IMG/VR virus record: IMGVR_UViG_3300028809_000010
Reading direction: 5' to 3' (one strand)
Source: an uncultured virus (IMG/VR IMGVR_UViG_3300028809_000010)
Lineage: Duplodnaviria; Heunggongvirae; Uroviricota; Caudoviricetes
Length of the DNA stretch: 64,000 nt
The stretch's first letter is position 1. Every line of letters begins with the position of its first letter. The notes beneath the pieces are model-generated. The model ran no database searches. It was not told the DNA's origin and saw only the letters and a program-made list of their open reading frames with translations. This document shows positions 1-40,576 of this stretch, in pieces. Position numbers and translations under genes: made by a program.

Positions 1-198
1 GCCTGGGTCACCGGAGCCCCCGCCGTCCAGTCGGCCCCGGCCGCTCAGGCGGCGGCTCCGGTGACCCAGGCGGCTCAGCCCGTCGACGTCACCAATCTCA
101 AGACCCTGGCACAGGCGATGTTCGACCAGGGTGTCCCGATCCAGGAATCGGTCAAGGCCCAGCTGCGGGCTGCCGGAGTAGCTGTCCCCGGCGAGTAG
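1..198 (+). CDS. 3' end of an upstream gene (Ala/Pro-rich C-terminus), partial
   Basis: Frame 1 is open from the window edge (AWVTGAPAVQSAPAAQAAAP...) to TAG at 196-198. Confidence 0.6.
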   Translation, partial: AWVTGAPAVQSAPAAQAAAPVTQAAQPVDVTNLKTLAQAMFDQGVPIQESVKAQLRAAGVAVPGE

Positions 199-288
199 CA
201 AGGTAGCCCCGGAATCGCTTGAGGCGACGCAGATTCGCGACCTGTCCGGGGCGCAACACATTCTCAACCAATCTTCTAGGAGGCCGAG

Positions 289-531
289 TTGCTGGCTGTC
301 TTGATCGTGCTCTTGATCGTGATCGTCCTTTTCGTCGGCCCGGCCCAATTCGATTCCGTTCTGGAGTCCTGGGACGGGCATCGGCAGCGCAAGACCAACC
401 GGGTGAAGGAGGAGGTCGAATTGGCCAGCAGTCACGGCGGATTCGGGTTCCAGTTCCCGAGCGAGGTCGAACTCGATCCCGAGGAAGAAGACGAAGAGGA
501 ATGGGAGGAAGAAGATGACAAGCGACGCTGA
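289..531 (+). CDS. Small membrane protein with acidic tail
   Basis: Hydrophobic N-terminus LAVLIVLLIVIVLFVG; AGGAGG RBS upstream. Confidence 0.6.
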   Translation: MLAVLIVLLIVIVLFVGPAQFDSVLESWDGHRQRKTNRVKEEVELASSHGGFGFQFPSEVELDPEEEDEEEWEEEDDKRR

Positions 532-748
532 TCTGGAACGGGCCGCCGCGAACACCCGCTGGCAAAAAGGCGATCTCCGCAACGGCTCATTCCGGAACAA
601 CCTGAACATCAACGACATCCAGGCCCCGGCAGTGACGGAAGAGCAAGTCCGGTCCGTCGGGGTGGCCGCTGCTCGATACGCCATCGACAGCCAGCTGGAG
701 CGCGACGAACTGGCCGAGCTGCTGAAGATGATCGGAGTCGGGTCGTGA
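515..748 (+). CDS. Hypothetical protein
   Basis: RBS present; overlaps its neighbours in the operon. Confidence 0.55.
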   Translation: MTSDADLERAAANTRWQKGDLRNGSFRNNLNINDIQAPAVTEEQVRSVGVAAARYAIDSQLERDELAELLKMIGVGS

Positions 749-1095
749 CGCCGGAAGAGCTGGCCGCCTACATCGTCGAGTGCCTCGAGGACCAAGGCGT
801 GTATGTCGAGGACGGCAATGGTCTTGACGAGGTTCAGATCTGCGGCTGGGTCGACCTGAAGCAAGTGGCCGTCGAGATCCTGGCACGAATCGACAAGGGC
901 CGATGAGAAAACTCGGCGGCGTCGTCTGCGATAACTGCCGGACTCTAACGCCCGTTCATAGAACCCCCGGTTGGATCTACCTACAAGTCAAGTCTGAATT
1001 GCCAAGCACCGACCTTGTATTCGACTTCTGCTCGTACTCCTGCCTCCGGGAATTCACCGCCCATTACCAGACACTGACCATCTGAAGGAAATGAC

Positions 1096-1656
1096 ATGCC
1101 TTTCGAATTCAAGCCCTGGCCGAAGACCCCCCGCCTGTTCCGCGAGGTCGTCATCACCGAGAAGATCGACGGGACCAACGGCGCCATCCACGTCTCCGAT
1201 GACGGCCTGGAAGTCGGCGCGCAATCCCGGAACCGGCTGATCACCCCCGACGACGACAACTTCGGCTTTGCCCGCTGGGTCTACGACAACGCCGGTGCTC
1301 TCGCCGACACTCTCGGCCCCGGAGTCCACTACGGCGAATGGTGGGGCTCGAAGATCGGTCGCGGTTACGGACTCACCAACGGCGAGCGACGGTTCAGCCT
1401 GTTCAACACCGCCCGCTGGGATGAGCTGTCCGTGGAGGGAGTGGACAGCCTCTCGGTGGTGCCGGTGATCTACGACCTCGCCAAGTTCGACAGGGCCTAC
1501 GTGAACCTGGCGATCGACGGCCTCCGCGAATACGGCTCGTTGGCAGCACCCGGATTCATGAACCCCGAGGGCATCATCGTCTACCACAAGGCGTCGCGGC
1601 AGGTCTTCAAGGCCACCCTCGACAACGACGGTCAGCCGAAGTCACTGGTGTCATGA
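1096..1656 (+). CDS. RNA ligase (Rnl2-like nucleotidyltransferase domain only)
   Basis: Motif I TEKIDGTN, plus QSRNR, YGEWWG and PEGIIV motifs. Confidence 0.85.
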   Translation: MPFEFKPWPKTPRLFREVVITEKIDGTNGAIHVSDDGLEVGAQSRNRLITPDDDNFGFARWVYDNAGALADTLGPGVHYGEWWGSKIGRGYGLTNGERRFSLFNTARWDELSVEGVDSLSVVPVIYDLAKFDRAYVNLAIDGLREYGSLAAPGFMNPEGIIVYHKASRQVFKATLDNDGQPKSLVS

Positions 1657-1880
1657 ATGCCGTCTGCCCGAAGTGCGGTGAGCCGGTGTCGACGGCGCTG
1701 CTGAAGGGGAACCAGCTGGTTCTGCTAAGCCCTGAATCGCGCACCGACGGAACAGTATTGGCCATCGACGGCCGCGCCACATTCCTCGACGGACCCCTTC
1801 TCGTAGAAGCCCGGCGTCGGAACATGCCCCTCTACACAAGACATGGAGTTACCTGCCGTGGATTCTGGATCACGCTCTGA
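1653..1880 (+). CDS. Small Zn-binding hypothetical protein
   Basis: CPKC...H...C; ATGA overlap with the ligase. Confidence 0.5.
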   Translation: MNAVCPKCGEPVSTALLKGNQLVLLSPESRTDGTVLAIDGRATFLDGPLLVEARRRNMPLYTRHGVTCRGFWITL

Positions 1881-2793
1881 CGAAGACATCTGGGAAGTCG
1901 CCGAGGAGATCTACAAGCGACTGAAGAAGGTCGAGGGCGGATGTTACACCCGGTACTGGGATCTGGTTGAACACCCGGTCCCCGCTCACTCGAGTCGACT
2001 CGTCCGGGATGCAGCCTGGAAGCTCTTGAGGGGGGAAGGCTACATCAAGCGGGGGGCGCGTGTACCCGGCGGCGAGGAGTACTTCGTCACGACCGGCAAG
2101 CCCCTCTCGAAGCCGCGTAAGTGCATCGTCAGGGGTTGCGTGAACCGAGAGGGCGATGGCCAGATGAGTGGCGCCCTGTGCAGCCCGTGCTATTCAATGC
2201 TGACGAAGGGCGAGATCGTCCAGACGACTTCGTTTCTCGGTGACATGCACGAGGAGCTGAAGAAGCTTCGCCACGAAGAAGCTGTCCGAGCGGCAAGGAA
2301 GGCTCGGGAGTTCCACGAAGGTCGCCCTGCTCGCAACCCTCCATCTGGTGGCGCGGGCGAGACGAAGGCCAGGGGTGCCGACTCGATCAGCCCCGAACGA
2401 CTCTCCTCTGGGGTAGGGCGCCTCCTTATTGACGCATACGACGCGGCAATCGAGCTCGGGGAGGTCCGCGAAACCAGCTCCACCGGCGGACAGAAAGGCC
2501 GAAAGCCGCAGCGGTACGCCTTGGTTCCGCCGGAGGCCGAGGACGTCATCGCCCGGGTCTACGGATGGGGTGCCCAGAAGTACTCGGAAGACAACTGGCG
2601 CAAAGGCTATGCGTGGTCGCTGTCGTACGAAGCACTGCGACGACACATCAACGCGTTCAAAGCCGGGGAAGAGCTTGACCCCCAATCCGGGCTACCCCAC
2701 CTCGGCCACGCGGCATTCCATATCAACACACTGCTCGTCTACTCGGGTGATCTCGAGAAGTACGGGCAATTCGACGACAGGCCGAAACTGTGA
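1843..2793 (+). CDS. dATP/dGTP diphosphohydrolase (DUF5664-like) C-terminal domain fused to unknown N-terminal domains
   Basis: GGQKGRK...GAQKYSEDNWRKG...RH...DPQSGLPHLGHAAF signature. Confidence 0.8.
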   Translation: MELPAVDSGSRSDEDIWEVAEEIYKRLKKVEGGCYTRYWDLVEHPVPAHSSRLVRDAAWKLLRGEGYIKRGARVPGGEEYFVTTGKPLSKPRKCIVRGCVNREGDGQMSGALCSPCYSMLTKGEIVQTTSFLGDMHEELKKLRHEEAVRAARKAREFHEGRPARNPPSGGAGETKARGADSISPERLSSGVGRLLIDAYDAAIELGEVRETSSTGGQKGRKPQRYALVPPEAEDVIARVYGWGAQKYSEDNWRKGYAWSLSYEALRRHINAFKAGEELDPQSGLPHLGHAAFHINTLLVYSGDLEKYGQFDDRPKL

Positions 2794-3125
2794 AGACAGC
2801 CAAGGAATATCTCATCGACGGACTGATCCGGCTCGATAACGGCGACCGCTGGATCAAGGGCGAACTGTCGCGGTACATCGACAGCAAGCGCTGCTGGTGT
2901 GCAATCGGCGCTCTGGTTGAGGGGGACGGGGGAGACAGCGAAGAGTACGACCAGCGCTGCCTCGCCAACGAAGCCCTGGGGCGTGCGGCCGAAGAACTGT
3001 TTCCGCATCGGACGCCGGGCGGGATGGTCGCCGCCGCCAACTTCAACGACCACGCAGACACCACCTTCGACGACGTGAAGAAGGTCTACGAGCTGGCGAT
3101 CAAGAGGGCAGGAGAAGATCAGTGA
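2790..3125 (+). CDS. DUF6197-like phage protein
   Basis: WIKG...CWCAIGAL...FND...DVKKVYELAI pattern. Confidence 0.65.
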   Translation: MKTAKEYLIDGLIRLDNGDRWIKGELSRYIDSKRCWCAIGALVEGDGGDSEEYDQRCLANEALGRAAEELFPHRTPGGMVAAANFNDHADTTFDDVKKVYELAIKRAGEDQ

Positions 3126-3433
3126 ACGAAGTACAGACCACGCTGAAGAAGGCCCTGGAGTTGCTGGGGCCGAATGGCGAGAACTGGATCAAAGGCCGCG
3201 CCTGGGAGTACAGGAAGGACAACTCCAAGGCGTACTGCTCGGACGGTGCGCTCAATGAGGCCGCGCGCAACACAGATCAGTATTTCAAGGCCGCGCACGC
3301 TTTGGAGAAGGCCATGCCGACGCACCCCCAGCAGGTGAACTATGTCTTTCTCAACGACAAAGCCGACACCGAATTCAGCCAGATCAAGCGCCTTTTCGAA
3401 ACAGCAATCGAGAAGGCGGCGGAGGAACAATGA
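3122..3433 (+). CDS. DUF6197-like phage protein (tandem paralogue)
   Basis: WIKG...YCSDGAL...ND...IKRLFETAI pattern. Confidence 0.65.
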   Translation: MNEVQTTLKKALELLGPNGENWIKGRAWEYRKDNSKAYCSDGALNEAARNTDQYFKAAHALEKAMPTHPQQVNYVFLNDKADTEFSQIKRLFETAIEKAAEEQ

Positions 3434-3666
3434 ATGACACCTGGTATGCGCTGGGCACCAATCCCTATCAGCAGAAGCACGAACCGCAACGACGGAAGCA
3501 GCTGCTGATCTTCCTGATCCTGCTGCTGGTGATGTCGGGGATTGCCGGGCTGACCGTCGTGTTCGCGGCCATCGCCTACTACGCGCCGTGGGTCCTCGTT
3601 GCTATCGGCGTCGGGGTGTTCCTGCGTTGGACGTGGCGACTGGCGGGGGAAGCGAGCAGGTCGTGA
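3430..3666 (+). CDS. Two-TM membrane protein
   Basis: Two long hydrophobic stretches; ATGA overlap. Confidence 0.6.
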   Translation: MNDTWYALGTNPYQQKHEPQRRKQLLIFLILLLVMSGIAGLTVVFAAIAYYAPWVLVAIGVGVFLRWTWRLAGEASRS

Positions 3667-4120
3667 ACGGGGCCGAGATCCTGATCTGCCGGGAGTGCGG
3701 TGCCTACGTCGACGACGCCGAGAAGCACGAGATGTGGCACCTGACGCTGACGGACCTGGTGAATCGCTCGTTGCCGTGGAAGCACAAGGGCGAGTGATGA
3801 ATCGACAAGCGCTCACCAGGTTGCTGATGCGGCACTTCCTGCTGCCCGACCTGTACCCCCGCCCCCATGAATGCGGTTGCGGCAGGCGGTTCTATTCGCT
3901 CCAGCAGTGGGCCGAGCACGTCACCGATGCCATCTACCCGAGGAGCTGAGATGTGCTGGGCGGAAATCCATTTCGTGCGGCTGGTGAAGATCACCCTCGA
4001 CGACGATCATCCGCTCGTTCCCCCGATCACCGTGGGCCGGTGCCAGCTCCACCAGAGTCACTGGCCGATGCAGCCGCATTTCCACTACGACGAAGAAGGC
4101 GAGCGATCCTACGAATGGGG

Positions 4121-4477
4121 ATGAAGAATTGGCTCCGGCGCCTCGGCCAGAAGCTGGGGCTGATGGAGGAACCTTACGCGGGGTGGTTTCCTCTTCACGG
4201 TCCACCCGAGCCCCCTGCCAGCCGGAAAACGGTCCTGCGCGACTGCTACATCTCGATCAACGGCGTCGACTTATCGGATCACATCAGCTCCGTCGAACTG
4301 ACAACGGCGCCGCCAGAAATCGACGAGGAGCCGCTGCGCTGGGCGGATAAGGAATACACCTGGACGACCGGCAGCTTTACCGTGCCCAGCTGGTGGTGGG
4401 ACGAGTTGTTCGCCGAGCCGCAACCCGACACCGACACCCAGCGTCTCGACACTGACTACGACAGGACATTCGAATGA
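4121..4477 (+). CDS. Protein containing a segment homologous to the major tail protein N-terminus
   Basis: KTVLRDCYISINGVDLSDHISSVEL matches KFVLRNCFIEINGVDLSDHISSVEV of 38741..39157 at 20 of 25 residues. Confidence 0.7.
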   Translation: MKNWLRRLGQKLGLMEEPYAGWFPLHGPPEPPASRKTVLRDCYISINGVDLSDHISSVELTTAPPEIDEEPLRWADKEYTWTTGSFTVPSWWWDELFAEPQPDTDTQRLDTDYDRTFE

Positions 4478-4789
4478 AAAAGCAGGTGGTCCACGCAGCG
4501 GTCTACGAGTTCGCCCTTCACCAAGACAGCACAGGGCACATTCCGGTGCGAGGGCATGGCCGGTACATCCAGTGCGAAGACTGCCGCTTTGTCGTCGATC
4601 TCAAAACCGGGCAGGCGGTCGAGGAATGAGCGGATTCTGGCTGACCCGAGACCACGTGAAAGTCCAGTGGTTCGAACGCGAAACCGACGCACTCAACAAC
4701 ATGAACGTCCGGAAACTCGGTGACTGGACGGCCAACCGGTTCCACTGGTGGGAAGTAGTCCCCGGCGGGCCACAAAGCGAGGAAAGCGA

Positions 4790-5299
4790 ATGAAGGTCTA
4801 CCTGACCGGTCGATACGACTACGAGGAATACACAAGAGGGCCGACCTTCCTGGAGGAGGAACACGCCCGGAAGTACTGCTCGGCCAACGACTTCTACGAT
4901 TACGAGGAAGTCGAAACCGAAGGCGACCCCGGGGATCTGTACACGCGGTACATCGCCGTCGCCAAGCTCTACCATCCCAACACGATGACGTACGAAAATG
5001 CCGACAGCGGATATCACTGGGGTCTGCAAGGGACGATCCACACCGACCTGACCAAGACCAAACAGGAACTGCTCGAGTATCAGCGCCACTCGTTCGAGCC
5101 GTACACCGTCGGAGACACCGAAGAGGTCCAGGAAGGTCAGGCTAGTGACAGCTACTACGGCATCGGCTTGGTTTACGAAGTCGGCCGCGTCCTCCGGGTC
5201 AAAACCGAGTCGAATTACGAAGAGCGAGCCCGGGTTCGGCGTGACGAACTCATCCGGCAGTGGCTGGCCGACCATCCCGAGATCGAGGTGACCGAATGA
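4790..5299 (+). CDS. Hypothetical protein
   Basis: RBS, coupled overlaps, typical codon usage. Confidence 0.6.
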   Translation: MKVYLTGRYDYEEYTRGPTFLEEEHARKYCSANDFYDYEEVETEGDPGDLYTRYIAVAKLYHPNTMTYENADSGYHWGLQGTIHTDLTKTKQELLEYQRHSFEPYTVGDTEEVQEGQASDSYYGIGLVYEVGRVLRVKTESNYEERARVRRDELIRQWLADHPEIEVTE

Positions 5300-5877
5300 A
5301 GAAGACTCTCACCATCGCCGGGCACGAGTTCGACGACTTCGAAGTGATCAGCGTCCGCGCCGCAGAGGGGCAGATGTGGCTGTGGCCCGACACGTCCATC
5401 TTCGACCTGACCCGGGCCAACGAACTTCTGCGCCCGCTCGACGACGCACCTGAGCCGTTCCGTGTGGTCACGCCCGCCGGTTACCGATACGACTGCAAGG
5501 TCCACAAATTCGGGTTGCCGTGGGGAGGGCCGCTCGGCGAACTGACGGCGATGGTCTTGGACGTTGTTGCCGAGTTGGGACCGGAGAGCTGATGCCGGGT
5601 CTGGTCTGCGGGGAATGCGGCGACAAGATCCGGCCCGACGACGACGCTGTGGAGCTCGCCTCGAATTGGTGGGTCCACGCGGAATGCTTTATCGAACAAG
5701 GAGATTAGGGATGGCGGAACAACTTGCTTTGAAGGTCACTCCCGATGAGGGGCTGAGCATAACCTTCGACGTTCGGGTGGAGACGTTGCTGGCCCTGGTT
5801 GGAGAGAACTGGGACGAAGGGACGCAGCTCCGGATCATCACACGGCCGGGCTGGATCGAAGTCCGGAAGGTGGACGA

Positions 5878-6189
5878 ATGAAGCTGAAGCTGGCGCTACT
5901 GGGCGCACTGTTCCTGGCGTTGGTCGGATGCTCTTCGGGGCCTCCGGCCGATTTCGTTTCGGGGACCGTCATCGGCAAGGACTACATCGCCGAGTCCTGG
6001 ATCTCCGTGCCGATCTCCTGCGGAACGAACTGCACCACCTACACCCAGATCTACAGCCCCGCCTCCTATCTGATCCATGTGGGGTGGTGCGACGACGGTT
6101 GCTCGACAGCGGACATTGCCGTCGAAGCAGTCGCCTACGAGCAGATCCAGATCGGCGACACCTACCCCCGGGAAGGACGTGCGGGGTGA
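5878..6189 (+). CDS. Lipoprotein
   Basis: Signal peptide MKLKLALLGALFLALVGC ending in a lipobox. Confidence 0.7.
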   Translation: MKLKLALLGALFLALVGCSSGPPADFVSGTVIGKDYIAESWISVPISCGTNCTTYTQIYSPASYLIHVGWCDDGCSTADIAVEAVAYEQIQIGDTYPREGRAG

Positions 6190-6661
6190 CTCTCTCGGAT
6201 CTTATGCAGGAGTGGCTGTTCCAGTCTTCGGACTCCATCAGGCTGACGGCTCAGATCGAATACAGCTACGGCCGCAAGGAAGGAAAGCTGGTCGACGTCA
6301 CCGGGCTTGATCTCTACAAATTCACCAGACTCGTCCGGGATCACTACATCCGGGAGGGGCGGTTGCCCGAATGAAGAAGCTCTTGGTGAAGATCATCGGC
6401 CCGATCGACGACTGGGGTCATCAGCACGGCTTCGTCCCCATCTGGGTCTGCTGGGTCCACGAGTGGCTCTGGTCGGGGCGGTGGAAGCGGTGAGCGGACC
6501 GGCCAAGTGGATCGGCAGCATAGAAGATGAGATTTGGGTCTGCGTCACCCACCGGCGCTTCCTGCCCTGCCGTCCCTGTCGGCGCATCGACATCGGCTCC
6601 CACTGGTCCTGCAACCCCCAGGAAGTCGAGAAGGTCCGGCAGTACCAGCAAGGGGGTGCCG

Positions 6662-7000
6662 ATGGATGATCTGCCCGTCTGGACGCGAACACCCGAGGCG
6701 GACAAGAGGATTCGCGAGTTGTCCCTGCCGCCTCGGCTGCGCATGAAGACCCAGAAGATGCGGGACCTGAGGGATGCCGTCGCCGGGTACAAAGCCCTCG
6801 ACGACTCCGCCCATGCCGGGATGTCCCCAGTCGGCGTCGACGCCCTCGCCTACCTCGAGCTGCTGCGCAAGCGGTCCAACGCTCGAGGTCAGCTGGCCCA
6901 GGTCATCGAAGAACTCGAATCGGATATGCCTTCAGCTCACGCCCAGGAGGCTCGACGCGCCGGGGAGGAGTTGTACCGGCTGCAAGTCAAGAAGAGGTGA
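6662..7000 (+). CDS. Hypothetical protein
   Basis: RBS present; in operon before WhiB. Confidence 0.55.
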   Translation: MDDLPVWTRTPEADKRIRELSLPPRLRMKTQKMRDLRDAVAGYKALDDSAHAGMSPVGVDALAYLELLRKRSNARGQLAQVIEELESDMPSAHAQEARRAGEELYRLQVKKR

Positions 7001-7006
7001 AAGTCA

Positions 7007-7534
7007 TTGAGTATCAACGATTCCTGGGAAGCGGGGGCGAAGTGCAGGGGCTGGGATGTCAACCTGTTCGACCCGGACACCTGGAAGCAGCAAGGCGACA
7101 ACCCCAACCAGGCCGCGCGAGCTCTGTGTGAGGGATGCCCGGTGATGCGACAGTGCGCGGAGCAGGCGATCAAGTCCAACGCCACCGGAGTGATCCGAGC
7201 CGGAGCCTGCCTGCACCAGTCCACCAGTAACCCCCGCAGGCACGACCGCTTGCACTTTCTGATCGAGCACGGACGTCACGCCGGACCCGGAGAACTGGCC
7301 GCCTACCGGCACAGCGCCGAGATGGCCCGCATCCAGCCGGACAGCAAGTTCGCCCCGGGGATGCACCTCGCTGGACCGGGGGTGGGACCGGGAGCGGAGG
7401 AAGAGGTGGTCGAGCAGCACCGCGAGCTGTCCCAGATGGGGTTGACCGGGCCGGAGATCGCAGTGAAGCTCAACGTCCCCCTCCACACCGTCCACTACCT
7501 GAACCGGCGGCTGAAGAAGCGTGAGGCGGCATGA
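7007..7534 (+). CDS. WhiB-family transcription factor with additional C-terminal HTH
   Basis: AKCRG...ARALCEGCPVMRQC...GVIRAG; C-terminal GLTGPEIAVKLNVPLHTV. Confidence 0.8.
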   Translation: MSINDSWEAGAKCRGWDVNLFDPDTWKQQGDNPNQAARALCEGCPVMRQCAEQAIKSNATGVIRAGACLHQSTSNPRRHDRLHFLIEHGRHAGPGELAAYRHSAEMARIQPDSKFAPGMHLAGPGVGPGAEEEVVEQHRELSQMGLTGPEIAVKLNVPLHTVHYLNRRLKKREAA

Positions 7535-9777
7535 GCGGATACGCATCGGCGGCCGGAGAGTACTGGGCCAAGTCCTGGCGGGGAGTGTTGCCGCTGCCTC
7601 CGTCGAAGAAGTTCCCCCCACCTGTCGGCACCACCGGCCACGACGGCTACTACCCGAGCTGGCCGGACATCCAGGCATGGTCGGAGCAGACGCCGGATGC
7701 CAACCTGGGCCTGCGCCTGCCGAACACCGTCGTAGGAGTGGACGTCGACGCCTACAACGGCAAGACCGGCGGCCAGACCCTCGCCGAAGCCGAACGACGC
7801 TGGGGCGAGCTACCCCCGACCTGGCGTTCCACCTCCCGCAATGACGGCGTCTCCGGTATCCGGCTCTACCGCGTCCAGGCCGGGCTCGAGTTCGACACGA
7901 AGATCGGGTTCCCGGAGCTGGGCCTGGGGCATATCGAGGTCTGCCAGTTCTTCCACCGGTATGTGGTCGCCTGGCCGTCCATCCACGACGAGACCGGCCG
8001 GACCTACCGCTGGCTCGACCACGCCGGGATGGAGTCGGACATCCCCAGAGAGGGACATCTGCCGTACCTGCCGCAGCAGTGGGTGCAGGCTCTCGCGCGG
8101 GAGTCGGCCGGGCCGTTGTCGTCGGCGGATGTGAAGGCGGCACTGGCGGGACTGACCCAGGGGCCGCTGTCGCCGTCGGTACAGAAGGTCTTGGCGAGGG
8201 CGCTGATGGATCTCACCGGCAACCCCGAGTCCCGGCACGACACCACCCTGCATCACGTCTTCGACCTCCTGCGCGAGTCGGAGAAGGGCGAGTCCGGGGT
8301 GCAGACGGCCCTGGAGCAACTGCGGGCGGCATTCGTCAGGGTCGTCGGCAAGGACCGGGGTGAGCAGGCTGCCGCTGCGGAGTTCGACCGGATGGTGGCG
8401 GGGCAGCGCGGGCACGATCTGATCGCCACGTACCCGTCCAACCAGGGTCTGCTCGGGGCGCCGCCGAAGTCCCGGGTGTCGGCCTACCTGCCGGAGGAGC
8501 ACGCCCAGACTCTCGAGGCGGTGAGGCCACAGGGCCCCGAGAGCTGGCAGGAGGACATCGGACAGGCATTCGACGCTTCACCTCCAATGCAGTCCTTTGT
8601 GGACGTCGAATACGACCCGATCTGGGACCTGATGGGGACGGAGCCGCCGAAGCCGTCGGGAGTGGACGAAGGGAACCGGACGTCGTGGGGACTGCTCGAC
8701 ATCGACCAGCTGCTGTCCGACGACACCGAGCCGGAGCTGCCGACCGTGCTGAGGATGGACGACGGCACCCCGCTGTTCTATCCCGGCCGGGTCAACGCAT
8801 TGGTCGGCGAACCGGAGTCGGCGAAGTCCTGGCTGGCCCAGCTGGCGTCGACTCAGGAGATCCGGGCTGCCTGCAAAGCCATCTACATCGACTTCGAGGA
8901 CATCGGCCGGAACATCGTGGCGCGACTCCGACTGCTGGGTGCCGACGACTCCGAGATCAGGGGTTCGTTCGGCGTCTCCAACCCGGACAGCCCCCTCGGC
9001 GCCGACGAGCAAGAGGAACTGTTCGCGGCGGTGGACGAGCTGATGCCGACGGTCATCGTGGTCGATGGAGTGAACGCGGCGATGGTTCTGCTCGGGCTGG
9101 ACCTGGAGAAGAACACCGATTGCACCCAGTTCCACCAGTTCCTGCTCAAGCCCCTCACTCGTCAGGGCGCGGCCGTCATCACCGTCGACCACGTCCCGAA
9201 GAACAAGATGGGCCGGGGTGGTTTCGCAATCGGCGCGCAGGCGAAGAAGGCGATGGTCGACGGGGCGATGCTCGGTGTCACCTGCAAGGTCCCGTTCGGC
9301 GAGGGGCGCCTGGGCGAGCTGGAGATCGTGGTCCTGAAAGACAAGATCGGCAAAGTAAGAAAGCTCGCCGAGAAGCGCGGGAACGACGATTACCTGGCGA
9401 CCGTGGAAATTGACGCCAGGCAGGAGGGCCGGGTCGTCATCTCCATTTGCAAGAAAGGTACCGGAAATGGCTCGGACGGAAATGGAATAAGCAAATCCGA
9501 CGCCAATCTGCTGTTCAAGATGGCCCGCGTCTCGGAATTCCTGGACCGCGCAGGACGAGAGGACGGACTTTCCTTCACCGCCATTTTCAAGGAGCTCAAA
9601 GGCGGGCGGGACGAGCTGGCGCGGGCGCTGACGGCACTGGAGGAGCGCGGGTCCATCGAGGTAGTGGACGGGCCTCGAGCGAGTCGTCTGCACCGCTTCG
9701 TCACGCGCTTCCAGCCGACCGATCTCGACCTCTTGGGTTCGCCGGAGAGCACGACTGATACGTCCGGTAGTGACTGA
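7531..9777 (+). CDS. Bifunctional DNA primase/polymerase fused to an AAA/RecA-like helicase
   Basis: Prim-pol motifs NLGLRL, VGVDVD and YVVAWPSIH; Walker A-like GEPESAKS, IYIDFED and IVVDG. Confidence 0.9.
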   Translation: MSGYASAAGEYWAKSWRGVLPLPPSKKFPPPVGTTGHDGYYPSWPDIQAWSEQTPDANLGLRLPNTVVGVDVDAYNGKTGGQTLAEAERRWGELPPTWRSTSRNDGVSGIRLYRVQAGLEFDTKIGFPELGLGHIEVCQFFHRYVVAWPSIHDETGRTYRWLDHAGMESDIPREGHLPYLPQQWVQALARESAGPLSSADVKAALAGLTQGPLSPSVQKVLARALMDLTGNPESRHDTTLHHVFDLLRESEKGESGVQTALEQLRAAFVRVVGKDRGEQAAAAEFDRMVAGQRGHDLIATYPSNQGLLGAPPKSRVSAYLPEEHAQTLEAVRPQGPESWQEDIGQAFDASPPMQSFVDVEYDPIWDLMGTEPPKPSGVDEGNRTSWGLLDIDQLLSDDTEPELPTVLRMDDGTPLFYPGRVNALVGEPESAKSWLAQLASTQEIRAACKAIYIDFEDIGRNIVARLRLLGADDSEIRGSFGVSNPDSPLGADEQEELFAAVDELMPTVIVVDGVNAAMVLLGLDLEKNTDCTQFHQFLLKPLTRQGAAVITVDHVPKNKMGRGGFAIGAQAKKAMVDGAMLGVTCKVPFGEGRLGELEIVVLKDKIGKVRKLAEKRGNDDYLATVEIDARQEGRVVISICKKGTGNGSDGNGISKSDANLLFKMARVSEFLDRAGREDGLSFTAIFKELKGGRDELARALTALEERGSIEVVDGPRASRLHRFVTRFQPTDLDLLGSPESTTDTSGSD

Positions 9778-9782
9778 TAAGG

Positions 9783-9925
9783 CCACCGATCCGATTCGAT
9801 CCGGATGGGTCAGTCGGATCGGTCGCAAAAGGTCCCATTTCCCGACCCGATATCCCCGAGCTGACTGAGCCGACCTACCCCCCCCTTTAGGGGGGTAGTC
9901 GGATCGGTCGGATCGGTCGGGTGGG
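9783..9925. repeat. Iteron-like GATCGG/CCGATC repeats with a central palindrome; candidate replication origin
   Basis: Several ggatcggtc/ccgatcc units and a CTACCCCC...GGGGGTAG palindrome directly after the prim-pol/helicase gene. Confidence 0.55.
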
Positions 9926-10342
9926 AGCCGCCTCGGATGACTGGATGAAAGGAGGCGGATTGAGCCCGGGTAAGCCGAAGCAATCCGGATCGGTCAGGAG
10001 GGTCAGCAATGCCCACAGGACGACCAAGCCGAAGCTCGCGTACTGCCACCACTGCAAGCGTCACGTACTGAGCGCTACCTACGACGCCCTCCCGCGAACC
10101 TTCGACCCGGTACCTCTGACTATGGAAGGTGAGCTGGCCTGCCTTCTGCGCGGAGAAGCAACGTGGTTTATCGCGGGCGGGCATTTATACAAAAGGAATT
10201 CCTGGGCGATCAAAACAAGTCCGCGCGGTCTCGGGGGAATGATCGTGCAACCCCACCACTGCGACCACCCCCAGCCGTCGGGCTCTCACGCGAATTGGCC
10301 GCAGCCGAAAAGCGACGACCCGGGATTCTAGAAAGGCCGAAT

Positions 10343-10543
10343 ATGTTTCAGGTTTCTACGGAAGACGGTCGGGTGTATCTCGATCAGGTTTCCCCCGCCC
10401 GCTCCATGAGTCCGTCCGAAGCGCGAAGTCTCGGCGAAGAGCTGATCGGATGGGCAGACGAGCTCGAGGTCCGCCAGCGCGTCCAGAGGATGGAAGAGCA
10501 GAGACGGATACGCGAGGAGAACAAGCTACGGAAGCGCCGATGA
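10343..10543 (+). CDS. Hypothetical protein
   Basis: GAAAGG RBS then MFQVSTEDG; ATGA overlap with Endo VII. Confidence 0.55.
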   Translation: MFQVSTEDGRVYLDQVSPARSMSPSEARSLGEELIGWADELEVRQRVQRMEEQRRIREENKLRKRR

Positions 10544-10965
10544 AAAGGTGCAAGGACTGCGTAGCGGAAGGGATCACCACACTCCGCGATGCATTCCACC
10601 CTGGCCCGAGGTGCGCTACCCACCATCGAATCTTCACCAAGACCCGCAAAGCCAACAACCACGAACTGATGGTCCAGCGCACCTACAAGCTCCAGCCAGG
10701 CGAATACGCCAAAGCCAAGGAGTTCCAAGAAGGCACGTGCGCTATCTGCCAATTGGCCACAGGTAAAAGCAAGAGGCTGGCAGTAGATCACGACCACGGG
10801 TGCTGCCCGGAAACTCCAACATGCGGTAACTGCAATCGAGGTCTTCTGTGCAGTGAATGCAACCAGCTCCTGGGCCGCGCCAAAGACCGCACCGACTTTT
10901 TCCACAGGGCTATCCGCTACCTGGATGACCCACCGATTCCCCGAATGAGAAGAGCAGAAAAATGA
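10540..10965 (+). CDS. Recombination endonuclease VII (Holliday junction resolvase)
   Basis: QEGTCAIC...LAVDHDH...RGLLCSECNQLLG. Confidence 0.9.
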   Translation: MKRCKDCVAEGITTLRDAFHPGPRCATHHRIFTKTRKANNHELMVQRTYKLQPGEYAKAKEFQEGTCAICQLATGKSKRLAVDHDHGCCPETPTCGNCNRGLLCSECNQLLGRAKDRTDFFHRAIRYLDDPPIPRMRRAEK

Positions 10966-11144
10966 ACCGCATCTCCACAGCCCTCGCCGACATCGCCTAC
11001 GAACTGCTCATCGTCTGGGCGTTCCTCGGCGCCATCCTCTTCACGTCCAGCGCACCGTCGTGGTGGAGCACCACCTTCACGGTCCTCGGCACGGTGTTCG
11101 TCGGCCTGGCCGTCTACCGCTTCTTCGCCGACCGGAAGGCATGA
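10962..11144 (+). CDS. Small membrane protein
   Basis: Two hydrophobic helices. Confidence 0.55.
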   Translation: MNRISTALADIAYELLIVWAFLGAILFTSSAPSWWSTTFTVLGTVFVGLAVYRFFADRKA

Positions 11145-11145
11145 C

Positions 11146-11406
11146 ATGTACGCGATGTGGATTGTTTTCATCATCCTCGGATTCGTAGTCGGGGCCGCCG
11201 CTGTCTTCGGTGCCGTGATCGCCTTCGCCGAGGACGAGTTCGGCCTGTGGCTGCTCGGGGTGGTGGCTGCCGTCGCCGCGTATGGCATGGCAGGTTTCGG
11301 CATTGCCCAGGTCACCTCGATCGAGCGCCAGCAATGCGAGGAAGCCGGTTACGAGTGGATCACCGGGACCTGCTTCGGCTCCAACGTGAATGTGAACCAG
11401 CCATGA
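11146..11406 (+). CDS. Membrane protein
   Basis: Two TM segments and C-terminal C-x3-G-x-W-x4-C. Confidence 0.6.
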   Translation: MYAMWIVFIILGFVVGAAAVFGAVIAFAEDEFGLWLLGVVAAVAAYGMAGFGIAQVTSIERQQCEEAGYEWITGTCFGSNVNVNQP

Positions 11407-11790
11407 GGCGGGCGAGTGTCCTGACCGAACAGGAGCGCCGAGACCACGAATGCAGGCGCCAGTGTCCACGAGGGCGCGGAGCCCGTGGCGACGTCAAGAT
11501 GTGCGACCACGGCCGGATCTGGGAGTGGCGCGCAAACACCGAGCGCTGGCGCCAGCTGAGTTGGCGCAACCCCTTCCAGCGCCGCCGCTACACCATCGCC
11601 CGCAAAGCCCTGCTCACCGAGGAGGAGTCATGAGCTGGATCAGGTGCGTCCCGGACAAGCACCACTGCCTGAAGCCGGTCTTCCCGAGGGGCTACGCCCG
11701 GGGGAGCCAGTGGCAGTGCGATGAGTGCGGGTCTGTCTGGACGCTGAAGCTGAACATCGACGACGGCCTGATCGTGAAGTGGAGTCGGTC

Positions 11791-12129
11791 ATGACGCTAC
11801 TCAGGGGCTGGCACGGCTGGGCGGCGGTGACGCTGGTGGTTGCGACCGTCGACGCCCTCGCCCCGGAAGGCCAGACGATGTCGGAAGCCCTCTACCGCGC
11901 CCGCCAGAAGCATCCATACCTGGTGGTGTGGCTGGTGACAACGACCGCTGTCCACTTGCTGGCCGGAGATCACCCGAGCATGGCCCGCATCGACGTGTTC
12001 AAGCTCTTCGGTGTCGGCCGTAGGAGGCTCCGAACCCTCCGGGGGTCACTCAGGTATGCCGAGGGCGGTTTCGTCAGCCCTAGGTCGTCCCATTGCAGCG
12101 GGAATGAGGTGCTGTGGCCAAGCCAGTGA
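11791..12129 (+). CDS. Actinophage membrane protein
   Basis: W...D..APEGQTMSEA..RAR..HP...HL pattern recalled from mycobacteriophage proteins. Confidence 0.55.
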   Translation: MTLLRGWHGWAAVTLVVATVDALAPEGQTMSEALYRARQKHPYLVVWLVTTTAVHLLAGDHPSMARIDVFKLFGVGRRRLRTLRGSLRYAEGGFVSPRSSHCSGNEVLWPSQ

Positions 12130-17530: not shown

Positions 17531-17803
17531 CTAGTCGATCGCCTCGATATTGATAACCACGTCTTCATTGCGGTAGAACTCGACAACTACCCGCTTGCCG
17601 TCGAACTTTCTCGAGCCTGTCCGCACAGCGTTAGCTCCCTTGCCAATCGTTCCACCGCCGCCCAATCCGCCCGACAGCTCAAGCGCGAGCATGTCATCGA
17701 GCCGAAAGTCTCCGTCTGTCGTTCGGGCGACTACTACACCGCCATCGCGGCCCGTTCCTCGCTGAAGGTATTTGATGGTGGTTTCAATCTTCTTGTTCGC
17801 CAT
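17531..17803 (-). CDS. Hypothetical early protein
   Basis: Start preceded by the start-associated repeat. Confidence 0.6.
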   Translation of the reverse strand: MANKKIETTIKYLQRGTGRDGGVVVARTTDGDFRLDDMLALELSGGLGGGGTIGKGANAVRTGSRKFDGKRVVVEFYRNEDVVINIEAID

Positions 17804-17841
17804 TGCCCTAATCCTCTGCTCGGTAATCGGTTCGGTCGTGG

Positions 17842-18006
17842 TTAGTTGCGCTCCGGCTGAATGTCTCGAACTGAGATCCACCTGCGCCCGTGCTCTTCGT
17901 TGTCCCACGAGACCAGGGCTTCGGAGTGGTCGCGAGAAGTGCTAACTACTAGACCGACCCCAAGGTATCGGTTGGTCACTCGGTCGCCTGTCATGATGTC
18001 GGCCAT
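17842..18006 (-). CDS. Small SH3-like hypothetical protein
   Basis: MADIMTGDRVTNRYLGVGLVV...VSWD; start-associated repeat. Confidence 0.55.
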   Translation of the reverse strand: MADIMTGDRVTNRYLGVGLVVSTSRDHSEALVSWDNEEHGRRWISVRDIQPERN

Positions 18007-18098
18007 GATGTCTATTCCTTTGCTCGGTAATCTGTTCGGGGGTCGCGTGCCCGGTGACCTATGACGGTCGTACGCCTGTAGCGTCCTGGCACTCTTTG

Positions 18099-18314
18099 CT
18101 AGTCAGTCATGAATGCCCAGTCACCCACGGTGTTCCCGTTGTGGTCGCGCAAGATCCCCTGTTCGCCATCTCGGGGGCTCCGCTCGGACAACAGTTCACT
18201 TGCCAGCTCTCGCAGAATGCGGCCGACCTCTTCGGCGCGCTCGCTGTAGTACTCGGATGAATCGGCGTCTCCGAATGCAGCGTTGCCGGTCTCGATTTTC
18301 AGCGTGAATGCCAT
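18099..18314 (-). CDS. Small phage protein
   Basis: FTLKIETGNAAF...RILRELA...RDHNGNTVG.W; start-associated repeat. Confidence 0.65.
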   Translation of the reverse strand: MAFTLKIETGNAAFGDADSSEYYSERAEEVGRILRELASELLSERSPRDGEQGILRDHNGNTVGDWAFMTD

Positions 18315-18349
18315 TGCTCTAATCCTTTGTCCGGTAAATGGTTTGGGGG

Positions 18350-18499
18350 TCACTGCGCGTCGGGTATGGGTGACAGGATGGCGGCGATCCAGAGGTCGAA
18401 TGATCGCTCTGGATCTGAGTCGACGGCCACGGCATTTGTATTCACAAAATCTCGGTATTCCATGCCATCGTTATGGGTCATTCCGTCGGTGATAATCAT
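18350..18499 (-). CDS. Small hypothetical protein
   Basis: 49-aa ORF preceded by the start-associated repeat. Confidence 0.5.
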   Translation of the reverse strand: MIITDGMTHNDGMEYRDFVNTNAVAVDSDPERSFDLWIAAILSPIPDAQ

Positions 18500-18503
18500 T
18501 GCT

Positions 18504-18854
18504 CTAATCCTTTGCTCCGTCGGTGATCCACTCGGACAGCCCCGCGAGACGGTCGCGCTTGTCCTGCAAATTGGTTTCCTGCAAGACGTCGGTCACGATT
18601 TCGACCCAGTCCACGGAATTCAAATCGGCGTCCCGGATCTCACCGTATGCACCTTCATCGCCACCGCCCAGCTCGGAAACGTACGCTTTTACGCGATCGG
18701 CGGCCTTCTCTACGTCGTTCCACGTACTGTCTTCCTCGTCGAACCATGCCGTACGTTCGATGATGCCCATGTAGGTTTTGTAGGCGTCGTAATCGTTGTC
18801 CAGGTCGAGCCGGACGGCGGCGGTATCTCCGTGGGCTACGTTGTATCCGGTCAC
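18504..18854 (-). CDS. Acidic hypothetical early protein
   Basis: Strongly Asp/Glu-rich; start-associated repeat. Confidence 0.6.
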   Translation of the reverse strand: MTGYNVAHGDTAAVRLDLDNDYDAYKTYMGIIERTAWFDEEDSTWNDVEKAADRVKAYVSELGGGDEGAYGEIRDADLNSVDWVEIVTDVLQETNLQDKRDRLAGLSEWITDGAKD

Positions 18855-19105
18855 TGTTCTAATCCTTTGCTCGGGTGGTTATTTGGTGGTGGGTTGGTGG
18901 GTAGCCTAGTCGCGTGGTCCGACAGTCGTCACGGAGTCCAACGTATCCCGGCCAGCACTTCCCGTAGCTCTTCGGACAGCCCGGGGAGTGCTCCGAGATG
19001 AGCTAGGGCTATGCCGATCGCGAGCAGAGACGCCCAGACGGCCATTGCAGGCAGCCACAGGACTAGAAGCAGTGGGTGGCTCTGCTGCTTGCGGTAGTCC
19101 ATGGG

Positions 19106-20490: not shown

Positions 20491-20898
20491 GACGGCCTCC
20501 AATCGGTGGTAAGTGAAGGGGATACGCGGGACCGCGCCATTGAGGTCCCTAGCCGCGCCATTGAGGTTGTATCCCTTGCGCCCTTAGTGACCTATGACGG
20601 TCGTACGCCTGTAGCGTCTAAGGGCCTTCTAGCTATGAGTTGGCGACGATCGAATAAGTGACCGTTCGGACTACCTCGCGTCGCCAATCGCCGGACGGAA
20701 CGATGATTTCGTGGTAAGCGATGACGCAAGTCCCTGCCGCGATCGCAGAGCCGGGATTGGTCGACCGGTACCACGTGGACGCGGCCACCAGTGCGGCGTG
20801 CGCGCCGGGCAGGGTGTCATGGGCCGACAGGCGGAACACAACCGGTTCGTGGTGCCGCGCGTACTCGGAGATTTGCTCGGTTCGAATGACTGTCCAGC

Positions 20899-22536: not shown

Positions 22537-23997
22537 TTATCGCTTGGCGACCGAGTCGAGAATGGAGGTGGTGAGGGCCTGGCGGTCGGGGGCAATGGAC
22601 ACCACGTCGATCGCGACTTTGCCGGGAGTGCGCTTTCCTGCCCCGAGCCTCTGCATGGTGATCTTCACGCTGAGCCGGAGGAGCGCTCGTTTGTCGACGA
22701 GTTCCATGTCACCCCAGATCAGGAGCGCGTCCCGAGCCAGGACATCCAACAGCGGCGAGATGAGTGCGGCCTTGCGCTGGGTTTCCAGGTCGGCGATCTG
22801 GGGGAGGAGTTCGGCCTCGGCGTCGACGAGAGAGGCCACCGACAGTTTCCCCTGCTTGGCGTACGTCCTGTATTCCTCGAGCCGCTTCTTCAGGGCGTTG
22901 AGCTCGGTCTCGATAAGAACCAGCCCGGCGTCCGGCGGCGGCACATCTTCGTCGATATCGAACAGAACCGTATCGGCTTTCCAACCAGCGATGATCTCCC
23001 GGACGCGGTCGGTGACGTATTTGTCGGAGTCGTCGGCCCGGCGCGTGAGGCATCCGTTGGTGCGGCAGACGTAGCGCCCCCCTCGGCCACGGTTCTGCCA
23101 GCAGACAGGCTCGCCGCACACTCCGCAGACCATGATGTTCGTCAGTAGGTGCTCGGGATGCTTGCCCCGGGGCTCCGCCAGTTTGTTTCCCTCGATCCTC
23201 GCGACGAGCTGCTGGTGCTGGTCCTCGGTGATGATGGCAGGCCAGGTCCCCTTAGACACGACCTCTCCGTAAAGAGTGCGGAGCCCGGCGATCTTCGGTC
23301 GGATCAGGACTTGCCGGATCGTGGTGATCGTCCAGGACCCTTCCTTCTGCGCGCGGGGGACTCCTCTCGCCGTCCACTCCCGCTGCACCGCCCGCAACCG
23401 CCCACCGGCAAGGATGTGATCGACGGCCCAGCGGATCGCGTCGGCGGCAATCGGGTCCTCCTGCCACGTCCAGGTGCCGTCGGGCTCGTAGACCTTCTGG
23501 TAGCCGAATCCGAGCTTGGCGTGGGGGTTGCCAGAGAGGGCGCGCTTGCGGATGTCTCGCTTGATCCGGTCGGAGAGCTGGTCGCTTTCGTGTTCGTTGA
23601 CGACGGCCTTGATGCCGGTGGACAGCCGCGCGTTCGTGTCGGTGAGGTCCAGGAGCTCGCCACCGGAGCACAGCAGCACCCCCCGCTCGACACAGAGGTC
23701 CCGGAGTTCGACCCACTCCTTCAGGCGGCGGGAGGTGCGGGACTGCTCCCAGATGACCAGGACGTCACCGGGCTGGAGTACGGTCAGCAGCCGCTTGTAG
23801 CCGGGGCGGTCCTTCGCGGCGAATCGGCTGGCGCTGGTGTCGTCGGTGATCTCCGGTCCGGGGGTCCAGCCGTTGGTGGCGATGACGTCACGCCCGACCT
23901 CGAGCTGCTGGGGGACCGAGCACTTCTTGCCGCCCTTGCTGTCGCTGACTCGGGCGTAGAGGACAGCGCGGCGGGTGCGGGCAGTGGTGGGCTTCAT
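22537..23997 (-). CDS. int: Large serine recombinase (integrase)
   Basis: YARVS catalytic Ser, SRTSR, FGY recombinase domain, Zn ribbon CGVC...C...C, coiled coil. Confidence 0.95.
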   Translation of the reverse strand: MKPTTARTRRAVLYARVSDSKGGKKCSVPQQLEVGRDVIATNGWTPGPEITDDTSASRFAAKDRPGYKRLLTVLQPGDVLVIWEQSRTSRRLKEWVELRDLCVERGVLLCSGGELLDLTDTNARLSTGIKAVVNEHESDQLSDRIKRDIRKRALSGNPHAKLGFGYQKVYEPDGTWTWQEDPIAADAIRWAVDHILAGGRLRAVQREWTARGVPRAQKEGSWTITTIRQVLIRPKIAGLRTLYGEVVSKGTWPAIITEDQHQQLVARIEGNKLAEPRGKHPEHLLTNIMVCGVCGEPVCWQNRGRGGRYVCRTNGCLTRRADDSDKYVTDRVREIIAGWKADTVLFDIDEDVPPPDAGLVLIETELNALKKRLEEYRTYAKQGKLSVASLVDAEAELLPQIADLETQRKAALISPLLDVLARDALLIWGDMELVDKRALLRLSVKITMQRLGAGKRTPGKVAIDVVSIAPDRQALTTSILDSVAKR

Positions 23998-24222: not shown

Positions 24223-25008
24223 TTGAGCCGACTGCTGTACGGATACCGCCGGACGGAGACTGGTGTCGAACCGGTCCCGGAGGAGGCGCGTGTCGTGCAG
24301 GAGATCTTCGAGGAGTTCCTGGCTGGGACGAAGGTGCAGCGGATCGCTCAGTCCTTGGCGAAGCGCGATCTGCGGGGCCGCCGGGGAGGACTGTTCACCA
24401 GCCCGCAGGTGCACCGCATCCTCCGCCAAGCGACGTACGCCGGTGCCGACGAGGGGTGCCCCGCTCTGGTCTCGCAGGCCGTCTTCGATGCCGCCCAGGA
24501 GAAGCTGGACAGTCCGGAGCGACAGAGCTTCGAGAGGGGGCAGCCTCCGGCGCATCTGCTGACGGGGATTGCCCGGTGCGGGGTGTGCGGCGCGGGGATG
24601 AAACGCTCGAGCCGGGGCAGCAGACAGCCCGACACCTACGCCTGCCCGAGCCTGGATCGCAGCACCCCCCACCCCGCGCGAGAGATGGCCTTCGTCGACG
24701 AGCTGGTGACGGAGACGCTGTTCTACATGATCAATACGGATCACTTCGCCGAGGTGCTGGGGGCGGCCGTGGAGAAGCGGGCCCGACAGAAAGCGCTGCT
24801 GGGCCGGGCCCCCGATTCGCCGCTGATCGACCTGGCCGAAGCGACAGACCCGCGCCAGGCATGGGAGGACCGTCCGCTGGAGTGGAAGCGGAGCCTCCTC
24901 AAGGACACCTTCCGCATCACGATCCTGACGGTGCCGAAGGAGAAGAAAGGTCGACACAACGGGCTCGATCCGCAGTTCGTGGACATCAGGTGGGCGGAAG
25001 GTGTGTAG
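24223..25008 (+). CDS. Serine recombinase DNA-binding domains only (recombinase plus Zn ribbon; no catalytic domain)
   Basis: YGY...EEARVVQEIF...YAG...ALVS...HLLTGIARCGVCG...YAC; GAGGAG RBS; no YxRxS N-terminal domain. Confidence 0.85.
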   Translation: MSRLLYGYRRTETGVEPVPEEARVVQEIFEEFLAGTKVQRIAQSLAKRDLRGRRGGLFTSPQVHRILRQATYAGADEGCPALVSQAVFDAAQEKLDSPERQSFERGQPPAHLLTGIARCGVCGAGMKRSSRGSRQPDTYACPSLDRSTPHPAREMAFVDELVTETLFYMINTDHFAEVLGAAVEKRARQKALLGRAPDSPLIDLAEATDPRQAWEDRPLEWKRSLLKDTFRITILTVPKEKKGRHNGLDPQFVDIRWAEGV

Positions 25009-27434: not shown

Positions 27435-27507
27435 TGGTCTGTAGCTCAGAGGACAGAGCACCGGTCTACGAAGCCGGGTGTCGCAGGTTCGACTCCTGCC
27501 AGATCAG
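27435..27507 (+). tRNA. tRNA-Arg(ACG)
   Basis: Canonical cloverleaf; CCGGT-CTACGAA-GCCGG. Confidence 0.9.
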
Positions 27508-27595
27508 CAAACGAACCCTCGGAATGTGCGCACGACCTCCGGGGTAGTAGGGATCAGCCCACGCCTCTCGAAGAAGCGAACCTCGGGCTGGATTC

Positions 27596-27681
27596 GGAAG
27601 GTGCCGCTGAATGGTCGGCAACCGGTGTCGAATACCGGGGTGGGGTAAAACCCAGGGGTTCGATCCCTCCACCTTCCTCCA
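27596..27681 (+). tRNA. tRNA-Ser(CGA)
   Basis: GGAAGGT/ACCTTCC acceptor, long variable arm, loop GTCGAAT, encoded CCA. Confidence 0.85.
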
Positions 27682-27682
27682 C

Positions 27683-27747
27683 GCCCCAACGGGTTGCTAG
27701 CGGCCACTTGATCAACGGCCGTGCTCGGGTTCGAATCCCGAGGGGGC
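27683..27747 (+). ncRNA. Truncated tRNA-like element
   Basis: GCCCC/GGGGC stem, T arm TCGGG-TTCGAAT-CCCGA, 11-nt anticodon-like loop, no D arm. Confidence 0.45.
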
Positions 27748-27750
27748 TCT

Positions 27751-27834
27751 GGAAGACAAATCGGCCGGGGGCCGAGCCGCGTTGCTAGCGCGTACGGGCA
27801 CTTGATGTCTGGGGTTCGAGACCTCTGTCTTCCG
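27751..27834 (+). tRNA. tRNA-Ser(GCT)
   Basis: GGAAGAC/GTCTTCC-G acceptor, loop TTGCTAG, long variable arm. Confidence 0.8.
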
Positions 27835-27837
27835 CAA

Positions 27838-27917
27838 CGGGGTGACCTCTTGGTAGAGGGAGCGGCCTGTAAAGCCGTGGCCGTAGTGCATTGGTGGTTC
27901 GACTCCATCCGCCCTGA
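27838..27917 (+). tRNA. tRNA-Tyr(GTA)
   Basis: GCGGC-CTGTAAA-GCCGT, long variable arm, discriminator A. Confidence 0.8.
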
Positions 27918-27919
27918 CT

Positions 27920-27995
27920 GTGGCCGAAGCTGAAGCGGATAAGCGCCCGGTTGTGGTCCGGGTAGTAGTGGGTTCGAGTCCCACCGGCCACCCCA
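27920..27995 (+). tRNA. tRNA-His(GTG)
   Basis: CCCGG-TTGTGGT-CCGGG, discriminator C, encoded CCA. Confidence 0.85.
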
Positions 27996-40503: not shown

Positions 40504-40576
40504 GCGGGCGTAGCTCAACTGGAAGAGCAGCGGTCTCCAAAGCCGCCGGTTGCAGGTTCGACTCCTGTCGCCCGCG
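40504..40576 (+). tRNA. tRNA-Trp(CCA)
   Basis: Canonical cloverleaf; GCGGT-CTCCAAA-GCCGC. Confidence 0.92.

Follow-up and report, generated by a model that had tools for sequence, protein, structure and literature searches.

Genomic context of the locus

The window analyzed here is the whole stretch of 64,000 nt that is assigned to an uncultured virus (IMG/VR record IMGVR_UViG_3300028809_000010). It represents a temperate siphophage which is found in soil metagenomes and which encodes a serine integrase, repressor-like genes, and a fused protease-capsid gene. The nearest isolates are Rhodococcus phages of Cluster CF, and the accessible part of a report on these phages describes the same three traits (PMC13313380). 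Identity in the primase-polymerase is about 50%, and on the basis of sequence comparison the phage can be considered a distant relative of Cluster CF. The fused gene for protease and major capsid (34425-36779) codes for 784 aa. The large serine integrase gene (22537-23997, minus strand) adjoins a shorter serine-recombinase-like gene (24223-25008, plus strand); the two are divergently oriented and their products share 26% identity over 146 aa.

The gene under study is an orphan of 118 aa at 4121-4477 (plus strand), which extends from an ATG at 4121 to a TGA at 4477. It is found in a plus-strand early/replication operon, where its neighbors code for an RNA ligase, a MazG-like protein, a WhiB protein, and a primase-polymerase. 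By position, it is thus non-structural, as stated in the original prediction, and it is placed among early/replication genes instead of the tail operon. The tail tube gene is 34.3 kb away in window coordinates, which agrees with the distance given previously. A divergent pair of repressor-like genes (56.6-58.2 kb) is located upstream of this region. No promoter-like or terminator-like site was detected near the orphan gene, and among the nine listed sequencing runs that contain window sequence there are no RNA runs; it is only the position of the gene which suggests that it is expressed early.

The early region, in which orphan ORFs without family matches abound, also carries three WhiB-like paralogs (7007-7534, 59589-59945, and 62742-63293) and two adjoining paralogs that belong to phrog_762 (2790-3125 and 3122-3433).

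Coding potential of the orphan ORF

A second in-frame ATG is present at 4115, upstream of that at 4121, and has been adopted by one public gene call. The ORF is linked to its neighbors by ATGA overlaps on both sides: its start overlaps with the stop of the upstream ORF (3867-4124) and its stop with the start of the downstream ORF (4474-4629). In frame, GC3 is 0.79. Codon usage was scored as a log-ratio trained on 11 long genes of the phage. On this scale, real genes reach 0.44 +/- 0.18, compared with -0.79 +/- 0.16 for off-frame sequence. The complete ORF scores 0.22 in frame, with values of -0.08, 0.38, and 0.33 for the N-terminal part, the tube-like block, and the C-terminal part, respectively (for this subdivision see below), and in each of the three parts its frame scores best of all six. 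Having these in-frame coding statistics, the ORF is taken as a real, lineage-specific gene.

It is very improbable that the ORF is not a gene but a frame which is open by chance in a GC-rich genome. Such an accident would fit with the weak score of the N-terminal part and with an ORF that has no homologs. It does not fit with a frame that is superior in all three parts, that has a high GC3, and that is bounded at both ends by ATGA overlaps. In addition, the alternative long frame, which begins at 3953, has lost its coding signal (GC3) upstream of about 4100.

Leu51 of the orphan product is encoded by TTA (4271-4273), which accounts for 4 of the 578 leucine codons (0.7%) in confident genes of the phage. 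The phage encodes no tRNA-Leu.

The ORF did not show a match in Pfam, PHROG, NCBIfam, PADLOC, or PDB; the PADLOC search was made with the profiles of PADLOC-DB 2.0.0 (2023). Its sequence is contained in the ESM Atlas, from which no usable feature match was retrieved. The AF2 model, which was computed from the single sequence, has a pLDDT of 45, which is too low for a fold to be assigned; for the complete tube fold (beta-sandwich, long hairpin, and helix), the ORF is moreover too short. Prediction of a complex between the tube protein and the orphan product gave a score of 0.00 in two runs, a result which speaks neither way. Contigs from four sequencing runs cover only short stretches of the window, with full identity (3993-4202 and 4752-4980 in one run, 4553-4802 in another), and no variants were present.

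The tail tube protein of the phage

The tail tube (major tail) protein consists of 138 aa and is encoded at 38741-39157 (plus strand). It matches phrog_4574 ("major tail protein") with an E-value of 3.8e-36. When its AF2 model (pLDDT 82) was submitted to Foldseek, solved tail tubes were retrieved, including those of monocin (8qhs), lambda gpV (8k36), and 80alpha (6v8i). The gene is flanked by a terminator-like gene (37675) on one side and by an assembly chaperone gene (39690) on the other side. The protein is a genuine tail tube, and 1469 clusters of homologs are listed for it. In the model, strand 1 comprises residues 2-13, followed by a loop (residues 14-21) and strand 2 (residues 22-29).

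Two cysteines, C9 and C104, occur together in 118 of 120 tube homologs, and exactly two cysteines are found in 107 of the 120. This pair may form a disulfide. In another tube family, inter-ring disulfides between two conserved cysteines are described in the accessible part of the respective report (PMC13576161).

Directly upstream of the tube gene is a gene for 92 aa without a family match (38454-38732). The beginning of its product (...EEPKDWAD) resembles residues 69-76 of the orphan product (EEPLRWAD), a similarity which is probably due to chance (pairwise E-value of 0.11).

A tube-like block within the orphan gene

Residues 36-62 of the orphan product (4226-4306, plus strand) form a tube-like block, which was delineated by codon alignment, BLASTP, and a tube-family profile. 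Its counterpart in the tube protein is residues 3-29 (38747-38827, plus strand), which according to codon alignment and the AF2 model represent strand 1, the loop, and strand 2. The codon-by-codon alignment reproduces the similarity originally claimed, with 20 of 25 residues being identical between ORF residues 36-60 (4226-4300) and tube residues 3-27 (38747-38821). The 14-mer INGVDLSDHISSVE is shared by the two proteins, and 9 of its 14 codons differ. Two of its serines are encoded by codons from different families (TCG/AGT and AGC/TCG), just as had been noticed for the first of these switches, and its leucine is encoded by TTA in the ORF and by CTG in the tube gene.

Pairwise BLASTP of the two proteins returned 23 identities over 43 positions (E-value of 1e-14). 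Among the ORFs of the window, this is the strongest of five intragenomic protein pairs (E-value of 2.9e-12). A tube-family profile, built from 37 tube homologs, was run against the 1472 six-frame segments of the window and matched only the tube and the orphan ORF (E-value of 3e-10). The match to the ORF (37 bits) is restricted to tube positions 3-36 (of 138), which are aligned to ORF residues 36-69, so that the remaining tube fold is absent, in line with the original prediction. A profile match over the whole length (about 138 residues), as is expected for the tube family, was not obtained, nor was a match to any PHROG. The single cysteine of the ORF, C42, is the counterpart of the family-invariant C9 of the tube; an equivalent of C104, which completes the pair in the tube family, does not exist.

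Weak similarity had been proposed to continue up to the motif FTV. This was not confirmed: the profile alignment reaches no further than tube position 36 (ORF residue 69), and past residue 62 identities in register are as frequent as expected by chance. Similarity sets in at tube codon 3 and is lost by codon 28-30. All 24 of ORF residues 36-59 represent states that are seen in tube homologs. Residues 60-62 are atypical for tubes, and the breakpoint is therefore probably found there; because no match exists beyond these residues, the edge of the block is sharp. As judged from these alignments, the block is a bona fide N-terminus from the tube family, for which both the homology and its limits are evident.

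The N-terminal part of the orphan product (residues 1-35; 4121-4225, plus strand) is basic and is predicted to form a short helix, followed by a Pro-rich linker. The C-terminal part (residues 63-118; 4307-4474, plus strand) is acidic, with a pI of 4.05, and contains five tryptophans. No relatives of these two parts were detected in the window or in any collection searched. They do not correspond to frame-shifted tube sequence either, as the profile was blank in the other frames near the ORF, and alternative-frame translations of 75 tube genes produced chance matches only. The ORF can thus be described as a chimera in which a 5' block from a tube gene is fused in frame with N- and C-terminal sequences that are unrelated to it. 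We regard it as solid, as a sequence observation, that this is a real and unusual chimera.

The sequence VPSWWWDELF in the C-terminal part weakly resembles a repeat motif of the tape measure protein. The corresponding gene (40603-46095) contains four tandem repeats of 132 nt (44 aa) at 43937-44401, with the motif W-x-W-[LI]-W-D-N-[IV]. Within the window, E-values for the similarity to WWWDELF are 0.05-0.26, and it is probably due to chance.

Small early phage effectors are often acidic and Trp-bearing, as is the C-terminal part. It is conceivable that the orphan is a functional gene in which the hairpin has been reused as a stable beta-hairpin scaffold, and that its job, such as host takeover or the binding of DNA or protein via the acidic, Trp-rich tail, is unrelated to the tail. 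The coding signal across all parts of the ORF, the acidic pI and five tryptophans of the C-terminal part, and the lack of every other tube element are consistent with such a role. For a generic scaffold, however, it is unexpected that 24 of 24 residues are within the tube repertoire and that rare states of the phage's own tube are shared (see below). We thus consider a reused scaffold to be rather improbable.

Conservation at the protein level

The tube-like block and the tube of the phage have the same residue at 20 of 27 positions, although their DNA differs at 31 of 81 bases. The corresponding values are 0.81-0.85 for pS and 0.20-0.25 for pN. Synonymous sites are thus saturated, and the block is a copy of the tube N-terminus at the protein level, not at the nucleotide level, as had been recognized in the original prediction. 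Because of this saturation, the capture is considered to be old. When an equal number of changes was placed randomly, 8.9 identities were retained on average and 16 at maximum; as none of 20000 trials reached 20, neutral drift of the block is excluded.

Recent gene conversion with the tube gene of the phage was rejected, with 50 of 81 bases being shared and the longest identical run being about 9 bases, as determined by eye. Also rejected was an ancient duplicate of the whole tube gene of which the most conserved part has survived. Within the family, the N-terminal 25 residues of the tube are averagely conserved (rank 55 of 114 windows), and tube constraint therefore does not explain why they alone have survived.

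Several observations connect the block to the tube of this very phage. Among 157 distinct tube N-termini, INGVDLSDHISSVE occurs only in the phage's own tube, and the combination I/L/I at tube positions 13/18/22 occurs in 2 of the 157. The closest relative of the tube (84% identical) has the consensus V/F/V at these positions. With respect to amino acids, the phage's own tube is joint best match to the block (20 of 27), and two other tubes tie with it. With respect to nucleotides, it is average (50 of 81), as other tubes have a mean of 49.8 and a maximum of 58. All three of the rare states in common are conservative changes, so that their coincidence could be accidental. The TTA codon of Leu51 is one step away from the TTC/TTT codons of the phenylalanine which is the family majority, and none of 60 distinct tube DNAs has TTA at this site, which hints at an independent Phe-to-Leu change in the ORF.

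Other comparisons set the pair among ordinary pairs of tubes. Tube-tube pairs with 20 amino acid identities have 48-64 nucleotide identities (n = 234), and the ORF and the phage's own tube (20 amino acid and 50 nucleotide identities) are within this range. Switches between serine codon families at the sites of the block are seen among true tubes, too. Saturation at synonymous sites would likewise be expected if the block had been captured recently from a tube lineage that is not sampled. That the ORF copy itself is under selection is inferred from indirect evidence, which is mixed.

Search for homologs and for a donor

The lack of homologs, which the original prediction had named as an outcome that would speak against it, is what we observed: only identical copies of the ORF were found among 5.8 billion clustered proteins and 1.84 billion representatives. 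As a check, the original prediction had asked whether truncated tube-like ORFs recur outside tail operons. Such a recurrence was not detected, with none of 23 related phage records having a second match to the tube profile; each has exactly one, and 11 of the records are at least 90% complete. An exhaustive protein search revealed only two short tube-like proteins (80 and 64 aa), which look like cut or frameshifted tubes. The nearest related record (45 kb) contains the tube but nothing that corresponds to window positions 1-12000. No relative carries the orphan gene, and the finding rests on a single genome.

A nucleotide donor was not found in any collection searched. The exact 27-mer of the block is absent from IMG/VR. 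A degenerate pattern of the 14-mer retrieved only two contigs, both with a tube gene identical to the phage's own type. BLASTn against 50,697 phage records returned chance matches only. A homolog search limited to residues 30-72 retrieved a single candidate, which is the ORF itself; as its word filter missed the phage's own tube as well, this search has no bearing on donors. Protein-guided scans with the peptide DCYISING retrieved only full-length and more distant tubes (four viral loci, one metagenome locus, and no genome locus). The comparison of tubes covered 120 of the 1469 listed clusters and 74 IMG/VR loci; given the large size of the tube family, an unsampled donor is plausible.

Chimeric orphan genes that arise via illegitimate recombination are a general concept in mosaic phage genomes. 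The ORF has in common with such genes a sharp-edged foreign block, the orphan status, and the location in a variable early region. It differs from them in that the block derives from a structural gene whose family includes the phage's own tube; in addition, the block is conserved at the protein level and has saturated synonymous sites. The main alternative to a selected mimic is a by-product of recombination, in which illegitimate recombination with a co-infecting or resident relative inserted a short 5' portion of its tube gene into an early region with fast turnover, whereby an orphan ORF was created or altered. The conservation would then be inherited from the donor lineage, and the ORF would have no role connected to the tube and perhaps none at all. 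This would account for the restriction of the ORF to this phage, for the sharp edges (from tube codon 3 to the collapse by codon 28-30), for a divergence from the phage's own tube that is typical for pairs of distinct tube lineages, and for the abundance of orphan ORFs in the region, and the size of the tube family provides room for a donor that has not been sampled. It is at odds with the unsuccessful search for a donor, with the rare I/L/I states (2 of 157 tubes) and the exact 14-mer (1 of 157, being the phage's own tube), and with an ORF which over its whole length, including the C-terminal part, has in-frame codon usage and tight overlaps on both sides. We regard a by-product of recombination as quite possible, though on balance doubtful.

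Possible function as a tube mimic

The reading which we prefer, with less than even confidence, is that of an old captured tube fragment which is kept by selection as a hairpin mimic towards a partner. About 24-27 codons would have been captured from the 5' end of a tail tube gene of a phrog_4574-like family. They encode strand 1, the loop, and strand 2, including the family-invariant cysteine, and would after their capture have been kept at the protein level, with the phage's own tube being the best match. The product would be made early from the long rightward operon and would display a tube-like hairpin, the rest of the chain being acidic, rich in tryptophan, and probably disordered. It might then compete with tube monomers for whatever reads the hairpin. 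If the partner is a neighboring tube subunit, the consequence may be capping or delayed polymerization; if it is a host sensor of the tube protein, this could be occupied before the late genes fire. Binding of the product to any such partner is an inference.

The interpretation as a tube copy, as put forward in the original prediction, is upheld with regard to the protein-level copy, the missing donor, the absence of the remaining fold, and the non-structural position, while the role as a decoy or polymerization inhibitor is a proposal. We consider such a mimic function to be plausible.

A more specific variant, which we consider unlikely, is a self-matched mimic that co-evolves with the tube of the same phage, is made early, and either occupies a DSR2-like or Avs-like sensor or caps tube subunits. 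Parallel V-to-I, F-to-L, and V-to-I changes would in that case have kept the 14-mer identical, and capping might proceed via the hairpin and the C9-equivalent cysteine, without the conserved partner C104.

Relation to known systems

With the tubes of phrog_4574, which share the fold of monocin (8qhs), lambda gpV (8k36), and 80alpha (6v8i), the ORF has in common residues 36-59/62, the succession of strand 1, loop, and strand 2, and the invariant cysteine. In contrast to these tubes, it shows no match to the long hairpin, the helix, or the strands at the C-terminus, it has only the first of the two conserved cysteines, it has 35 extra N-terminal residues, and it is located in the early region instead of the tail operon.

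The defense protein DSR2 is reported to sense monomeric tube protein, and DSAD1 to bind to the open C-terminal domain of DSR2, thereby allosterically blocking the binding of the tube; DSR2-DSAD1 complexes have been deposited in the PDB (PMC10981675). DSAD1 resembles the proposed mimic only in its way of working, as a small phage protein directed against a tube-triggered defense, and the accessible part of that report does not describe it as a copy of the tube. Similarity to DSAD1 was not detected: a phmmer search of the ORF against all PDB chains returned only two noise matches (ribosomal protein L22, E-value of 1 or more). Avs proteins are reported to bind the tail tube protein among other phage proteins (PMC13728456). 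Tai proteins block tail assembly (PMC11364771), and Tab is a tail-assembly inhibitor of mobile elements (PMC10884400), as far as described in the accessible parts of these reports. Tai and Tab, which are encoded by prophages and satellites, are likewise comparable only in their way of working, as small mobile-element proteins that block tail assembly, and this likeness is drawn from their descriptions. They are defenses of resident elements against other phages and are not described as tube fragments in the accessible text, whereas the ORF is located in a lytic early operon.

In the literature searched, we did not encounter a phage gene that redeploys part of its own tube as a mimic, nor a captured block of a structural gene such as that of the orphan ORF. 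Defenses which sense the tube or block tail assembly are already documented. A functional hairpin would mark which part of the tube is read by a partner or sensor, and it would provide a rule for finding similar decoys, namely to search early regions for short copies of structural proteins at the protein level. Should a self-matched mimic be confirmed, it would represent a new class of phage proteins, in which a fragment of a structural protein is redeployed as a decoy or assembly regulator. If the block is only a scar of recombination, it would neatly illustrate how phages build orphan genes out of pieces of older ones.

Additional features of the window

Seven tRNA genes are present in the window. 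Five of these (Arg, Ser, Ser, Tyr, and His) form a cluster at 27435-27995, ahead of the packaging genes. A tRNA-Trp gene (40504-40577) separates the tail chaperone genes from the tape measure gene, which is Trp-rich, and a tRNA-Pro gene (59106-59188) is found in the early region.

An element of about 39 nt (CATTGCTCTAATCCTTTGCTCGGTAA...) occurs in five copies at 17801-18890, spaced by 185-355 nt, in a region of small genes on the minus strand. These repeats may be repeated translation-start or regulatory sites. An exact direct repeat of 32 nt (18054-18085 and 20587-20618), the copies of which are 2.5 kb apart, flanks part of the low-GC minus-strand region.
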